DNA of 10,082 bases from a virus (IMGVR_UViG_2917855067_000003:1-10082), one strand, 5' to 3'. Shown: positions 2,671 to 8,861, numbered from the stretch's first letter. Notes: generated by a model from the letters alone, not told the origin. Made by a program: numbers and translations.

Positions 2671-2894
2671 ACGTTACCCTCCCCGGTAAGCCACTGCTGA
2701 TTGCAGCGTTCGACCACGCCGTCGAGCTGGGCGGTCATGAGGTAAATCACGGAGGTGAGCTGTAACTGCTGCGTCGGGTCACGACGAACGGTGGCGCAGT
2801 CCTGCACCTGCATCAGGTTGCCGACGAGCTGGCCGACGTTGCGCATATGCTCCAGACATTCGAGGTCACGGGCGGTAATGGTGGTGTGTCTCAT
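2667..2894 (-). CDS. hypothetical protein (75 aa), P4-like leftward operon
   Basis: ORF with SD GGAGGTG upstream. ATGA overlaps at both ends indicate translational coupling. Function not recognised. Confidence 0.55.
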
Positions 2895-3085
2895 GCGCGC
2901 ACCTCCGCAACCGGCAGACGGCCAGCGAACGAGAGGACGTAATCGCGAATGAGGGAAAGGCGTGCGGCGTGCTCATCACCGGCAACGGTGCGGAGCATAC
3001 AAATACGGGGGGTACGGTCTGCGCGACGAACAGCGGCAAACACAAAGACAAACTGCGGGTGTGACGGGGTGAGGGTCGTAGCCAT
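2891..3085 (-). CDS. hypothetical small protein (64 aa), first gene after the putative leader terminator
   Basis: ATG at 3085 is preceded by a near-consensus SD (AGGAGG, about 9 nt spacing). The same frame stays open up to 3442, but that extension crosses a terminator hairpin and lacks an SD, so the short form is preferred. Confidence 0.5.
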
Positions 3086-3288
3086 AAGGGCAACCTCCTG
3101 TGAATAGCGGTTATTGCCACCACCGGAGTTCCTACGCTCATGGGTGGTGACCCGAACGGGGGTAGGAATACCGGCTTCACAGAATACCGGCCAGCCCGAA
3201 AGCTGCCCCGCCCGGACCACCATTATCTGACAGGGGCTATGGAATAAGCACCACAGCCCGAAAAATGGGTGTGCCTGAGCAACGACGT

Positions 3289-3311
3289 AAAAAAAGACGC
3301 ATGGCGCGTCT
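3289..3311 (-). terminator. rho-independent terminator for leftward transcription (P4 timm-like position)
   Basis: On the minus strand: stem AGACGC / GCGTCT (plus 3295-3300 and 3306-3311), 5-nt loop, followed by a run of 7 U (plus-strand A-run at 3289-3295). Confidence 0.5.
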
Positions 3312-3367
3312 GTTGTCGCCTGTGAATTACACGGGTTCCTACGCCCGGCTGCCGATTTTGCGGCAGC
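3289..3367 (-). ncRNA. candidate small structured RNA (position analogous to the P4 CI / C4-type immunity RNA)
   Basis: About 350 nt lacks a convincing coding region between alpA/vis and the next SD-bearing ORF. The minus-strand transcript would start with a 7-bp hairpin (plus 3348-3354 / 3361-3367), contain further imperfect stems, and end at the terminator. A possible -10 (TATAGT, plus 3374-3379) lies just upstream. No homology check was possible. Confidence 0.25.
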
Positions 3368-3438
3368 GGGAAAACTATACCTGGAAACGGCGAAAAGAAG
3401 CAAGCCAGAAAAAGGGGCTGTTTGCTGAACGGTCATCA

Positions 3439-3705
3439 TCATGCGTCATAGCCCCGGTTACGTTCGGCAATGCGATCCGCCATCCATGCAGTGATTTCAG
3501 ACTGCGCCCACGCCACATTTTTTCCGCCGAGGGAGATTTGTTTCGGGAAGGCTTCCCGGCTGATGAGGTCGTAAATGGTCGAGCGGGACAGGCCGCACAG
3601 ATGCATCACTTCGGGCAGACGGATAAAGCGCTCGTGAACGGTATCAGAAACCGGCATCAGCGGCGCGGCAGGGGCAGAAGACGGGGAAGAAAAAGCAGTG
3701 TGCAT
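3439..3705 (-). CDS. alpA: AlpA/Vis-family helix-turn-helix regulator (88 aa), matching the size of P4 Vis
   Basis: Translation contains the AlpA-family signature ([47 protein letters not shown]). SD GAGG lies upstream of the ATG at 3705. Confidence 0.85.
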
Positions 3706-3795: not shown

Positions 3796-3834
3796 GTGAG
3801 ATTTTCGGGGAAACAAACATTGACTTTTCGCTCT

Positions 3835-3871
3835 GGCAAACAAAGGCAAACGCTGGCAAACATATGCAAAT
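3835..3871. promoter_or_regulatory. four direct repeats at exact 10-bp phasing (GGCAAAC x3 and TGCAAAT); candidate regulator binding array
   Basis: GGCAAAC at 3835-3841, 3845-3851 and 3855-3861; TGCAAAT at 3865-3871. They sit in the divergent control region between alpA/vis and sid. Confidence 0.4.
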
Positions 3872-3873
3872 CA

Positions 3874-3889
3874 CTGCATTACAATGCAG
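3874..3889. promoter_or_regulatory. perfect palindrome CTGCATT-AC-AATGCAG; candidate operator
   Basis: 7-bp inverted arms with a 2-bp spacer, directly after the phased repeats and before an AT-rich stretch. Confidence 0.4.
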
Positions 3890-3971
3890 CAATTTCTATT
3901 TCTTTTAGTTATATATTTTTCATTTTTAATCAAAATAAAGTCTAAATGCTATAACCAGAGCAAAACAGGAG

Positions 3972-4105
3972 GGTGAACAGTGGTGAACAGACGGTGAACA
4001 GTCAGACCCTCAACTATTCACCCTTTAACTTACTGTATTAATTATCTTTTTATTTAAGGTGAACAGTGGTGAATAGTTATAAGTAAAAAAATAAACGGTG
4101 AGTAA
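3972..4105. repeat. iteron array GGTGAACA(G), the reverse complement of the P4 type I iteron TGTTCACC; ori/crr-like alpha binding region
   Basis: GGTGAACAG at 3972-3980, 3982-3990, 3993-4001 and 4058-4066; GGTGAATAG at 4068-4076; inverted copy CTATTCACC at 4013-4021; degenerate GGTGAGTAA at 4097-4105. Spacing is 10-11 bp within clusters, and an AT-rich stretch (about 3890-3960) lies alongside. Confidence 0.7.
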
Positions 4106-4152: not shown

Positions 4153-4170
4153 TGTGCCAGCATTCTGACA
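4153..4170 (+). promoter_or_regulatory. Ogr/Delta box (TGT-N12-ACA) of a Psid-like late promoter
   Basis: TGT at 4153-4155 and ACA at 4168-4170 are separated by 12 nt. The dyad centre is about 80 nt upstream of the sid ATG, consistent with a -55 activator site and a short leader. A weak -10-like CAGAAT lies near 4205-4210. Confidence 0.45.
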
Positions 4171-6269: not shown

Positions 6270-6950
6270 TTAAAAATGATTAATCAAGATTTGATTTTTT
6301 TTAATTGCTCGTCTACTCCAGTGCTCTGTGATGTTTTGAGTGAAGTCGGGACGAACTATTTTTGCTCTAAAGTCCACTGCTTCAAGAGATTCTACTCTCA
6401 AATATATTCCTTCTGATATTTCATCGCTGAATTTTGATTTTTTTATATAAGAAGATAACTTGTTTAGTTCAAAGAAACCTTCGTCAAGAAAAGGAACGCA
6501 ATGAAGGTTTGCATTTGATATTATTTCGTTTCTTTGAGGAAGTGGTAAAAATATTTTTCTTTTCTTATCGAATACATCAAATGCTAAAAAATAGTCAGGT
6601 AAGCGGGTGTAGTGAATAGAATGTTTCGCATAACACCATTCCCCAAATATAATGTATTGGTCTCGAATGTAGTCAAAAAGGTTGTCGCGGTTGTAATTTA
6701 ACCAGTCAGGAAGCATTTTCCATTGGCCATTAAAAGGTTGATGTAAAAAAGAACCCCTATTTTGAAGGAGTAAGTCTGCATTACCATTAAAGGAAATGCC
6801 TAGATTAGCTCCGTCAATTTTCTCTTCTATTATGGTTTTTTTAGTTGAAAGCAATAATCGTTCTTTATCTGAAATGACCTTGTCATCCCTGACGTTAGGA
6901 TGGTAAAAAATATGTGGAGTGGACGGGAATTTATATAGTTCATCTTCCAT
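6270..6950 (-). CDS. Rnl2-type RNA-ligase-like nucleotidyltransferase (standalone adenylyltransferase domain, about 226 aa)
   Basis: Translation carries ligase motifs in the right order and spacing: motif I EEKIDGAN (KxDG), motif III FGEW, motif IIIa FDVFD, motif IV EGIYLR, motif V RAKIVR. ATG at 6950 has SD AGGAAG 9 nt upstream; the ORF-track GTG at 6977 has no SD. It is AT-rich and overlaps the upstream gene by 11 nt. Confidence 0.7.
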   Translation of the reverse strand: MEDELYKFPSTPHIFYHPNVRDDKVISDKERLLLSTKKTIIEEKIDGANLGISFNGNADLLLQNRGSFLHQPFNGQWKMLPDWLNYNRDNLFDYIRDQYIIFGEWCYAKHSIHYTRLPDYFLAFDVFDKKRKIFLPLPQRNEIISNANLHCVPFLDEGFFELNKLSSYIKKSKFSDEISEGIYLRVESLEAVDFRAKIVRPDFTQNITEHWSRRAIKKNQILINHF

Positions 6951-7479
6951 TTGGAAACTTCCTATTATATGTATCACTTATGAGTTTTTCGTCAGCAAAA
7001 TGAACCGTTATGCCTACATCAGCAAGAGATTCTTTCCAGCCCCACCATTTACTATCAGTTGCTTGAAAAATAGGCGGTTTGTCTACGTGTGCGTATGACG
7101 TGGCTACAAATTTTCTATCCGATAAATCAAAGTTTGTCAGGCCTTCATGTACAGGGAACTCCTCATAGCTAGTTTCGGTTTTTGTAATTCTTACGATGTT
7201 TTTATCAGGGAATTTCCATTGGTTAGTGTAAATCCATTTCATAAATTTATCACCAACGCCAGGGGCTCCACTCATGCTTAAATTTGAGCGATACTCTTCA
7301 ACTATTTCTTGTGCTTCATCAATAACTAACCCACCATTTGCAATTGCCTTTTCTATTATTTCAACACACTCTAAAACACAGCTTAGAATATCATCTGGAA
7401 TGTTTTTTATATCTGTGTGCATATTAGCTGTAACAGCAACATTTGTATCAATTAAAAAAGCAGCAGGTAATTTATTCAT
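6940..7479 (-). CDS. PIN-like domain protein (putative nuclease), 179 aa
   Basis: N-terminal AAFLIDTNVAV resembles the first PIN strand with its conserved Asp; further acidic positions (DEAQE, ATDSKW, ISDTY) fit the PIN pattern. SD GAAGG upstream; start overlaps the ATPase stop (ATGA). The domain call is by eye. Confidence 0.6.
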   Translation of the reverse strand: MNKLPAAFLIDTNVAVTANMHTDIKNIPDDILSCVLECVEIIEKAIANGGLVIDEAQEIVEEYRSNLSMSGAPGVGDKFMKWIYTNQWKFPDKNIVRITKTETSYEEFPVHEGLTNFDLSDRKFVATSYAHVDKPPIFQATDSKWWGWKESLADVGITVHFADEKLISDTYNRKFPNGR

Positions 7480-8861
7480 TTAGATGTACCTTCTTTTTCT
7501 TTTATTCTTCTTTTTAACGCTGATTTTGCTTGCTCTGTAATGTCTGTTAATTCATCACCAAAGAAATTATCTGGCCAGTTGAGGATATTTCCAAATGTAT
7601 CGATTTGCAACGGTGTTAATTTTGGGGTTGAAGATGAAATGTCAGAGAAGTACGCGGAAACTTCCTCGGATTTTATTTTGTCTTCTGCTATTCTCCTTTG
7701 CAGTCTGCGAAGGAAATGCTCTGAGTGAGTTTCTATAATTAGCTGTATGCCTCTTGATTTTCCATTTTCTCGTGAACGGATAACATCGATCATAACATCA
7801 GCAAGCACTGATTGTGCTTTTGGGTGTAAATGAATTTCGGGTTGTTCCATCAAAATTATTGAGCCTGGTTGAGCGTAAAAGCATTGTACTAGAACTGGAA
7901 GAACCTGAGAAACCCCAAACCCAACATCTGGAAGGTCTACCCACTGTTTAGAGCCTTTAGTTTTAACTTTGACTTCATATTCTTGACGATGTTCTGAAAT
8001 TGCTTTTACAGAAAAACTATCAATTAAGTCCATTTGTTTTAATTTTTCAGCGATGATTTCTTCTAATGGTTTATTTTTCTTTTTATAATCAAGGCCGATT
8101 CTTCTTTCTTTTGATGAAAGAATGGCGGAAATTGCATTTTCACCTGCATAACCTACGCTTTCTGGTGAAATTCCAGTCCATGGATATAATCGTTCAGGCT
8201 TATTTCTCATTGGCCCTAAGTAACATACTGAACGGAATAGCTTTTCATGCATTAGATTGATGTCTTGCACAAAATCAGCATTTTGATGGTAAGCTACGAC
8301 TTCCTCAGGGAAACCATAAAATCTAACTACATCTTTTATCGCCCAAACCCTACCCTTCTGTCGAGTTAGAGTGAAATTGTTAGTTTTGATTTTATAATTT
8401 GACTTAGCGTCACGAACAAGTCCTATAGATACATCATCTTTTTCTTTCTGATAGAATGTATATGAGAATCCATTGACATATAAGCTATTATTCTCAGCAT
8501 TAAAAGATATCTCAGATTTAAAATGGCATATTTTCGATAAGGATATAATGCTGTCTAATGATGATTTAGAGTATAATTCATCTATTGACCAAGAGTACTC
8601 AAATGAGATGTTCTTGTTAACGTCTCTCATGTTAACCATGTCTTGAAATGAGCCCAATTGTACTGCTGAGTTTTTACCTCCTGGGTAGAATGGGGTTTTT
8701 CTATCAGATGATTCAACCGTTTGTTTAAGCATCATGAGAAGCTGGCCAATACTAGATTTACCAGAGCTATTTGTTCCAAAGAAAAGAGTGATAGGTGACA
8801 TTTTGATTTCACCTGTATCAGTCCAAACCTTAAAATTTTCTACTTTTAATGTTTTAAACAT
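7476..8861 (-). CDS. ABC-type ATPase (AAA_15/AAA_21, OLD/RecF-like), 461 aa
   Basis: Walker A GTNSSGKSS near the N-terminus, Walker B region ILMEQPEIHLHP and H-loop ETHSEHF near the C-terminus, with a long insertion between, as in defence-associated ABC ATPases. SD AAGGA upstream; ATG is only 3 nt after the int stop. Confidence 0.85.
   Translation of the reverse strand: MFKTLKVENFKVWTDTGEIKMSPITLFFGTNSSGKSSIGQLLMMLKQTVESSDRKTPFYPGGKNSAVQLGSFQDMVNMRDVNKNISFEYSWSIDELYSKSSLDSIISLSKICHFKSEISFNAENNSLYVNGFSYTFYQKEKDDVSIGLVRDAKSNYKIKTNNFTLTRQKGRVWAIKDVVRFYGFPEEVVAYHQNADFVQDINLMHEKLFRSVCYLGPMRNKPERLYPWTGISPESVGYAGENAISAILSSKERRIGLDYKKKNKPLEEIIAEKLKQMDLIDSFSVKAISEHRQEYEVKVKTKGSKQWVDLPDVGFGVSQVLPVLVQCFYAQPGSIILMEQPEIHLHPKAQSVLADVMIDVIRSRENGKSRGIQLIIETHSEHFLRRLQRRIAEDKIKSEEVSAYFSDISSSTPKLTPLQIDTFGNILNWPDNFFGDELTDITEQAKSALKRRIKEKEGTSK

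Follow-up and report, generated by a model that had tools for sequence, protein, structure and literature searches.

Immunity in the bacteriophages P1 and P4 relies on a C4-type RNA, which is processed by RNase P from a leader transcript and persists as a stable molecule of about 77-79 nt. In P4, pairing at the leader element seqA reportedly promotes termination at t1 and limits CI synthesis in this way, and a further terminator, t4, is said to lie between cI and timm. The P4 eta gene has a constitutive promoter inside it, the transcripts of which terminate early via interactions between CI and seqA, and P4 Kil is Eta in truncated form; synthesis of the full-length protein depends exclusively on the upstream late promoter and is coupled to the alpA homologue, and translation of eta keeps termination from occurring (PMC10111431). 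The Rho-dependent terminator timm of P4 corresponds to positions 8365-8209 of X51522, starting at the kil ATG and lying inside kil (PMC3177188). Elements described elsewhere as 'IsrK-like' and 'C4' are, in the P4 literature, seqA and the CI RNA, respectively (PMC3632133; PMC4825925). For P1 and P7, differences in the boxes of the immunity RNA and its targets define heteroimmunity (PMC12197685), and Hfq binding together with trans-activation of the downstream ORF is known only for IsrK of Gifsy-1 (PMC4825925).

Here we analysed IMGVR_UViG_2917855067_000003:1-10082, a stretch of 10,082 nt of viral DNA that is called the window throughout and whose immunity features all lie on the minus strand. 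A preliminary description had singled out positions 3289-3438 as an untranslated leader that may hold a small immunity RNA of the P4 CI type. We find that this interval is the 'seqA + t1' leader of a P4-like immunity region, 3' of a putative PLE-like promoter, and that the CI/C4-type RNA is located outside it. The locus is one more example, well preserved and otherwise unremarkable, of a known RNA immunity system, and it leaves the known mechanism unchanged.

Results

The locus aligns with the immunity region of P4

Searching phage genomes by blastn, we found that P4 8180-8775 aligns to 98% of window positions 2891-3450 with 73% identity, so the earlier suggestion of an RNA switch for immunity, of the P4 type and located in the leader of the left operon, had pointed to the right system. 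The neighbouring genes are also P4-like and comprise int, psu, delta/ogr, alpA, DUF5375 (P4 ORF106) and the alpha primase-helicase; together with sid, which is likewise present, int, psu, delta/ogr, alpA/vis and alpha make up the P4-like core gene set. Pfam matches in the window were obtained for Phage_integrase, Psu, Ogr_Delta, Phage_AlpA and Zn_Ribbon_Prim/Toprim/D5_N/Pox_D5, and upstream of alpA there are P4-type ori repeats (TGTTCACC) that align with P4. We are therefore highly confident that the window carries a P4-like satellite prophage and that its immunity region is the segment 3442-3085. Among 5,426 complete E. coli genomes, about 1,500 contain the immunity segment, with up to 99.2% identity. 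The alpha primase gene contains a +1 frameshift and, given this lesion, the P4-like element of the window may be decaying.

The features of the locus are listed in Table 1. The TGA stop of the alpA/vis-like gene (3441-3439) overlaps the start codon of an eta-like ORF in an ATGA arrangement, and 353 nt separate this stop from the next ATG preceded by a Shine-Dalgarno (SD) sequence (ATG 3085-3083; GGAGG 3098-3094), in agreement with the gap of about 350 nt noted before. This ATG belongs to the kil/icd-like gene, which is the first gene translatable from a PLE-like transcript and is followed by ORFs for a 75-aa protein without a family match, a DUF5375 protein and the primase-helicase.

Table 1. 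Features of the immunity region and its surroundings in the window (all coordinates count from the first nucleotide of the window)
Feature	Position	Strand	Basis or remarks
alpA/vis-like gene, 88 aa	3439..3705	-	Pfam Phage_AlpA, E = 3e-20; aligns with P4 ORF88
eta-like ORF, 183 codons	2891..3442	-	ORF list; Pfam Phage_ASH; open frame in relatives
Putative PLE-like sigma-70 promoter, within eta-like ORF	3374..3403	-	Invariant boxes in 24 aligned elements; -35 TTGCTT 3403-3398, 18-bp spacer, -10 TATAGT 3379-3374
a1/b1 C4-target model match	3328..3380	-	Rfam c4-a1b1 RF03163, 49.6 bits vs gathering score 46.7
IsrK-like/seqA leader RNA	3290..3367	-	Rfam isrK RF01394, 77.5 bits vs gathering score 50, E = 1e-15
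Hairpin 1, perfect 7-bp stem	3348..3367	-	GCUGCCG/CGGCAGC, 3367-3361/3354-3348, 6-nt loop CAAAAU
Hairpin 2	3347-3332	-	Box a1 in loop
Box a1 GUAGGAA	3336..3342	-	Loop of hairpin 2; complementary to a' of C4 RNA
Box b1 UUCACAG	3320..3326	-	Single-stranded linker; complementary to b' of C4 RNA
Intrinsic terminator, P4 t1 counterpart	3289..3311	-	Stem 3311-3305/3301-3295, U7 tract 3295-3289
Covarying hairpin, variable t1-C4 spacer	3236..3257	-	Stem 3257-3251/3242-3236
C4/CI-type antisense immunity RNA	3140..3227	-	Rfam C4 RF01695, 78.3 bits vs gathering score 45
Box b' CUGUGAA	3182-3176	-	12-nt loop of C4 RNA hairpin 2
Box a' UUCCUAC	3168-3162	-	Unpaired junction of C4 RNA
seqC-type downstream target	3094..3135	-	Boxes a2 and b2, kil/icd SD
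Box a2 GUAGGAA	3135-3129	-	Complementary to a'
Box b2 UUCACAG	3104-3098	-	Abuts kil/icd SD GGAGG (3098-3094)
kil/icd-like gene, 64 aa	2891..3085	-	NCBIfam phage_ICD_like, E = 1.3e-21

For the comparison with relatives, 22 Enterobacterales loci, retrieved from a genome collection by searching with the 64-aa protein, were aligned with P4 and the window, giving 24 elements. Across them, the structures of the Rfam models were paired in 98.4% of 1,080 cells, and 8 pairs had changes on both sides, while in a control in which the 3' partners were slid by 1-3 columns only 29-46% of the cells were paired. The C4 and isrK models match P4 and all 19 of the 19 relatives scanned, with fixed spacing upstream of icd.

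The flagged interval contains a putative promoter and a seqA/IsrK-like leader that ends in a t1-type terminator

A putative sigma-70 promoter resembling PLE lies within the eta-like ORF. It was identified by conservation: the TTGC of its -35 box and the TAyAGT of its -10 box are invariant in 24 of 24 aligned elements and are separated without gaps by a constant distance (TTGC-N20-TAyAGT). The consensus promoter scan missed it because the -35 box matches the consensus at only three of six positions; the sole call of that scan was ATGACC-16-CATAAT at 3795-3768, upstream of alpA. The -10 box ends 7 nt before 3367, which is position 1 of the isrK model, and from this arrangement transcription is predicted to start near G3367.

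The match to the isrK model is full length (model positions 1-77) and includes the terminator. Its elements follow one another in the order hairpin 1, hairpin 2 with box a1 in the loop, a linker with box b1, and terminator. The c4-a1b1 model, which describes targets of C4 RNA, matched an overlapping segment and exceeded its gathering score by a small margin. The perfect 7-bp stem reported earlier for 3348-3354/3361-3367 (GCTGCCG/CGGCAGC with a 6-nt loop) is hairpin 1, in which the seven pairs are 99.4% paired across the 24 sequences and the loop is mostly invariant. A terminator scan likewise returned the intrinsic terminator that had been reported at 3311-3289, with a 7-bp stem (AGACGCG-CCA-TGCGTCT, 3311-3295) followed by T7 down to 3289. 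This stem is G+C-rich, 98.6% paired and carries a compensatory GC-to-CG swap in 7 sequences, and it aligns with the P4 hairpin GACGCGCCACGCGTC and its T7. The Rfam matches and the alignment of the whole region with P4 at 73% identity therefore identify 3289-3438 as the counterpart of the P4 seqA + t1 leader.

Between t1 and the C4 RNA there is a variable spacer, in which RNAalifold, applied to 21 spacers, supports a covarying hairpin; 5 of the 12 pairs that it predicted have changes on both sides. Folding energy was less informative. The 156 nt of 3285-3440 folded no better than chance (z = -0.9, with 39 of 200 shuffles at least equal), and the 366-nt leader folded better than its shuffles (z = -2.9); the minimum-energy fold of the latter mixes elements and was not used. 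The support for function rests on homology and on the comparison of relatives, not on folding energy. Pairing of a1 with the U-tract of the terminator, considered as an antiterminator, was dropped; the other a-types are unable to form this pairing.

The C4/CI-type RNA is encoded downstream of the terminator

A covariance-model search of the minus strand, as suggested in the preliminary description, gave matches to isrK and c4-a1b1 in the flagged interval and to C4 at 3227-3140. The C4 match covers model positions 1-87 and lies about 100 bases further downstream than 3289-3438. From it, a mature C4/CI-type RNA of about 79 nt is predicted, extending from about 3222 to 3145. It has the architecture of C4 RNA, in which a long basal stem with compensatory changes encloses two hairpins: helices 4-6 are 100% paired in the 24 sequences, one pair changes from GC to AU in 9 sequences, and hairpin 1 of this RNA is fully replaced in 3.

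The two antisense boxes of this RNA find exact partners on both of its sides. Box a' (3168-3162) is the exact 7-nt complement of a1 (3342-3336) and of a2 (3135-3129), and box b' (3182-3176) is the exact 7-nt complement of b1 (3326-3320) and of b2 (3104-3098). Each box of the window pairs over only 7-9 nt. The predicted duplex of the C4 core with seqC has an energy of -31.6 kcal/mol, as compared with -19.8 +/- 3.7 for shuffled sequences, of which 4 in 1000 were as good, and the duplex of the C4 core with seqA has -30.4 kcal/mol, against about -19.6 +/- 3.8 for shuffled targets; both energies beat at least 99% of the shuffles.

The position of the C4 match bears directly on the earlier suggestion that a CI-equivalent small immunity RNA is encoded in 3289-3438 itself and ends at the 3311-3289 terminator. 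The promoter, the hairpins and the terminator of the interval would indeed yield an RNA of about 78 nt, and through c4-a1b1 the interval belongs to the C4 clan. However, the C4/CI model, with 78.3 bits, matches 3227-3140, downstream of the terminator, and not the flagged interval; in P4 itself the C4 model falls at 8507-8420, the locus of the CI RNA, and the isrK model at 8692-8615 (60.8 bits). Moreover, the flagged RNA contains the target boxes in their sense form, a and b, and not the antisense boxes a' and b'. We therefore consider it very improbable that the immunity RNA is made from the flagged interval. The hairpins and terminator that had been taken for a repressor RNA are instead its upstream target, the IsrK-like seqA with a1 and b1, and the counterpart of t1.

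The antisense and target boxes change together

The most telling result of the comparison is the covariation of the boxes. In all 24 elements, complementarity of at least 7 nt is kept among a', a1 and a2, and of at least 8-9 nt among b', b1 and b2. Although no other parts of the RNAs vary as much as the a and b boxes, the box changes are coordinated among three separate sites. About five a-types and seven b-types occur in the 24 elements, in 14-16 combinations. This shows that immunity specificity is assembled by modular combination from two boxes that swap independently of each other.

An open reading frame without amino acid constraint spans the proposed RNA switch

The eta-like ORF spans the putative promoter, seqA, t1, the C4 RNA and seqC, and shares its frame and its stop with kil/icd. 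The sequence ATGATGATGA at 3442-3433 overlaps the alpA stop, and the frame that begins there is in phase with the ATG at 3085. In 22 of the 24 elements, 115-140 codons of this frame precede the kil ATG without interruption, and the frame survives indels of +3, +6, +45 and -3 nt (compensated -1/-2). It contains no stop in 21 of 24 elements, whereas stops number 121 and 87 in total in the two alternative frames, and when the window sequence was shuffled, only 1.5% of the shuffles stayed open. The two Pectobacterium loci retain an open leader ORF as well, in their case shifted relative to kil by the loss of one nucleotide immediately 5' of the ATG.

The coding character of the two parts of this ORF differs. 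In the 64-codon kil/icd part, variability by codon position is 0.159/0.156/0.396, a periodicity that indicates a real coding sequence, and Kil is 85.5% identical to P4 Kil (P4 8180-8365). A tblastn search of phages with the 64-aa Kil/Icd protein found P4, PY54, phiKO2 and Pasteurella phages and did not return P1 Icd at E <= 1e-3; the link to P1 Icd is made by the NCBIfam model alone. The eta-specific part, in contrast, showed variability of 0.285/0.295/0.272 at the three positions, that is, neither codon periodicity nor conservation at the amino acid level. Since the frame is kept open while variability is flat across codon positions, conservation concerns the translatability of the leader and not the amino acid sequence.

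These data also decide against reading the interval as nothing but the N-terminal coding sequence of a 183-aa Ash/Eta/'Icd-like' protein that has no RNA function. The PGAP annotation gives 3442-2891 as a single CDS of 183 aa named 'Icd-like', the Pfam family PF10554 Phage_ASH matches aa 22-131 of the long ORF (105 bits vs gathering score 26, E = 3.7e-30), and the frame is conserved as open. However, amino acids 22-131 are exactly the RNA region, the conserved blocks of which coincide with the RNA helices and the promoter boxes, so that conservation tracks RNA helices, with compensatory changes; the excess of third-position substitutions seen in kil is absent; the a and b boxes are exchanged several nucleotides at a time, with the corresponding change at each of three separate sites; and an intrinsic terminator and the invariant boxes of a putative promoter lie inside the ORF. 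Taken together, we see next to no chance that the interval encodes a protein segment and nothing else.

The ORF likewise qualifies the label 'untranslated leader' given to the interval before. The label would be appropriate for transcripts from the putative internal PLE-like promoter, but not in general, as a conserved 183-codon ORF spans the leader. Translation through 3442..3086 is expected under some conditions, by analogy with P4, and would leave the RNA switch standing.

Comparison with described immunity systems

The whole region is colinear with that of P4 and has the same order of elements (PLE - seqA - t1 - cI/CI RNA - seqC - kil/eta - timm). Both share the b-box type (UUCACAG/CUGUGAA), an eta-like ORF coupled to an alpA/vis homologue, and the flanking genes int, psu, delta, sid and alpha. 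They differ in the a-box, which is GUAGGAA/UUCCUAC in the window and GUGAGAA/UUCUCAC in P4, in one position of b', a U in place of the C of P4, so that one G-U pair arises, and in the spacer between t1 and CI, which is 45 nt shorter in the window. Because the a-box differs at two of seven positions, the window element may be partly heteroimmune to P4. An epsilon homologue was not identified in the window, where the 75-aa ORF without a family match stands in its place.

A further difference from P4 concerns the late promoter PLL, whose activator site is not evident in the window. Upstream of alpA, the P2/P4 late-promoter activator site TGT-N12-ACA was not evident, its sole match being at 4153-4170 and adjoining the sid-like gene, and the position corresponding to the P4 PLL activator site reads TGT-N12-AAA. 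For this reason an equivalent of PLL, and hence read-in from a late promoter, is hypothetical for the window element.

With the immI region of P1 and P7 (a1b1 - C4 RNA - a2b2/icd - ant) the locus shares the logic of an antisense RNA cut from its own target transcript, the two boxes a' and b' with duplicated targets, and a downstream target lying over the ribosome-binding site of a gene of the Icd family. It departs from immI in that no ant gene follows icd, which sets the locus outside the immI definition, and in that its leader lies within a translatable ORF and includes an intrinsic terminator. In the linear plasmid prophages of the N15 family (phiKO2, PY54), similarity is confined to the RNA module and icd, with 81-82% identity over 115-260 nt in the isrK/C4 segment and 39-45% identity in the icd homologue; the remaining genome is unrelated.

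The Salmonella prophage Gifsy-1, with its IsrK/STnc1160/orf45-anrP arrangement (RF01394), resembles the window in the full-length isrK match including the terminator, in a C4-type RNA located downstream on the read-through transcript, and in a downstream ORF for which control through its ribosome-binding site is predicted in the window. In contrast, the genes downstream in the window are kil/icd and satellite replication genes, not the antirepressor AnrP, and the context is a P4-like satellite, unlike the lambdoid prophage of Gifsy-1. Overall, the window element displays the hallmarks of the C4/CI, isrK/seqA and eta/kil families that could be tested, with the promoter of the IsrK-like RNA as a candidate.

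The likeness to Gifsy-1 raises the question of whether the short terminated RNA (3367-3290) acts mainly as a diffusible regulator of the IsrK type, whose a1 and b1 would, in trans, titrate C4/CI or open the read-through transcript and so turn on kil/icd and the downstream genes. The isrK model is matched in full, terminator included, and the complementarity of a1/b1 to a'/b' equals that of a2/b2. In Gifsy-1, expression of IsrK in trans makes translation of the downstream ORF over 100-fold higher, and a processed RNA of about 80 nt (STnc1160) arises downstream of IsrK (PMC4825925); furthermore, IsrK-like sequences of P4-like prophages of S. Typhi scored as required in a TraDIS transposon-insertion screen (PMC3632133). 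However, P4 seqA is treated as a target in cis (PMC4825925, PMC10111431), and the Gifsy-1 authors' own test of a CI-like model was inconclusive (PMC4825925). A role mainly in trans is thus doubtful to us as the chief function of the short RNA, and such a role is compatible with the P4-type switch, to which it would be a non-exclusive addition.

Discussion

We propose, with strong confidence in the model as a whole, that the segment 3442-3085 works as an immunity switch of the P4 type. The proposal builds on the homology and structure of the RNA elements, their three-way complementarity and its covariation, the conserved promoter boxes and the open but unconstrained frame; the processing of the RNA, the roles of the terminators and the effect of translation on termination we infer from work on P4, P1 and Gifsy-1.

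According to this model, the PLE-like promoter inside the eta-like ORF would be constitutive and would produce a transcript from about 3367 that remains untranslated until kil. Its first 78 nt would form the seqA/IsrK-like element, in which two hairpins and the boxes a1 and b1 precede t1 (3311-3289), and transcripts that read through t1 would contain the C4/CI-type RNA, to be excised as a stable RNA of about 79 nt. The exposed b' and a' of this RNA could then pair with a1/b1 in seqA and with a2/b2 in seqC (3135-3098). Pairing at seqC would mask the ribosome-binding site of kil and block its translation, so that transcription would end before the replication genes, while pairing at seqA would raise termination at t1, limit CI synthesis by autoregulation and yield the short seqA RNA. 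By analogy with P4, where it occurs at t4 and at the Rho-dependent timm, the early stop of transcription by which the lytic genes are protected is expected further downstream than the terminator at 3311-3289, and kil/icd of the window is expected to contain an equivalent of timm at about 3085-2929.

The second state of the switch would be set by transcription that enters from upstream of alpA/vis, as from PLL in P4. Ribosomes would then move from alpA into the ATGA-coupled eta-like ORF, and translation of eta through seqA, t1, CI and seqC would prevent the pairings and termination; late transcription would be insensitive to immunity because of this translation. The open and unconstrained eta-like frame of the window fits the description of eta in P4 (PMC10111431).

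For annotation, our findings mean that the 183-codon 'Icd-like' CDS given by PGAP and its Phage_ASH domain overlie a putative promoter, a terminator and two structured RNAs, and that only the last 64 codons of this CDS behave as a protein-coding gene. More speculatively, and at rather long odds in our own judgement, the a and b boxes may act as a two-part, recombining 'barcode' that sets the immunity specificity of P4-like satellites, with the short seqA RNA serving as a diffusible decoy for CI/C4 that allows cross-talk and with the eta-like ORF kept only for the ribosomes that erase the switch. If this were true, the barcode would permit cross-talk between co-resident satellites and prophages of the N15, P1 or lambdoid type that have the same box types, and the eta-like ORF (Phage_ASH) would be maintained for the passage of ribosomes, not for a protein product.

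Conserved elements of the immunity leader

Comparison of the 24 elements, comprising the window, P4 and 22 related loci, revealed that the loop CAAAAU and most of the stem of hairpin 1, the first stem-loop of the IsrK-like seqA leader (the upstream target RNA), are invariant in every element, in contrast to the adjoining a and b boxes, which vary freely. We found no complementary partner for the loop or stem of this hairpin. A further hairpin, lying outside every Rfam model, was detected in the spacer between the intrinsic terminator t1 and the antisense C4 RNA, where both sides of the stem were changed in 5 of 12 pairs while the remainder of the spacer was variable. RNAalifold also paired CCAUU (3268-3264) with the AAUGG that begins the C4 basal stem on its 5' side. 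The spacer hairpin may help the C4 precursor to fold or to be processed.

The Pfam domain PF10554, annotated as 'Ash protein family', covers the same stretch as the promoter, seqA, t1, the C4 RNA and seqC, the downstream target. Since it overlaps these elements and no third-codon-position signal was present over this stretch, the family seems to owe its conservation to RNA and DNA elements and not to a protein. The leader ORF is kept open: in the two Pectobacterium loci (L022 and L023) the loss of a single nucleotide, 3 nt upstream of the icd ATG, places it out of frame with icd, and still it contains no stops, suggesting that the conserved trait is translation of the leader rather than an Eta-Kil fusion protein.

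Near-identical P4-like immunity regions were also found in two assemblies labelled as Firmicutes, a Vagococcus sp. (L012) and a Clostridiales MAG (L021), the latter being almost P4 itself; both are probably contaminating enterobacterial contigs.

Features mapped in and around the immunity region
Feature	Position	Strand	Basis or detail
Alpha primase-helicase gene	1-2335	minus	frame change near 977
PF10554 domain	3050-3379	minus	
Spacer hairpin	3236-3257	minus	covariation across relatives
Hairpin 1	3348-3367	minus	loop CAAAAU
P4-type ori repeats TGTTCACC, at least five copies	3830-4100	minus-strand reading	alignment with P4 origin
Variable psu-int hotspot, three genes	6270-8861	minus	

Replication functions and hotspot genes

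The P4 origin aligns with the TGTTCACC repeats. Directly upstream of the alpA promoter region (~3835-3860) lies a distinct array of three TTTGCC(A) repeats, for which P4 has no counterpart. Compared with an intact 777-aa relative (93% identical), the alpha gene carries a +1-nt insertion that breaks the frame at amino acid 470, leaving two overlapping ORFs, 923-2386 and 1-1095; the split reflects either pseudogene formation or an error in sequencing.

The hotspot between psu and int encodes a 461-aa ATPase (AAA_15/AAA_21/DUF3696) matching PADLOC HEC-03B (E = 1e-124), a 179-aa partner matching HEC-03A (E = 2e-25) and a 235-aa protein with the Pfam RNA_ligase domain (E = 2e-30). In the closest E. 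coli relative the hotspot instead holds a DUF4435 protein and an ATP-binding protein. Together, the three genes of the window are candidate anti-phage cargo.
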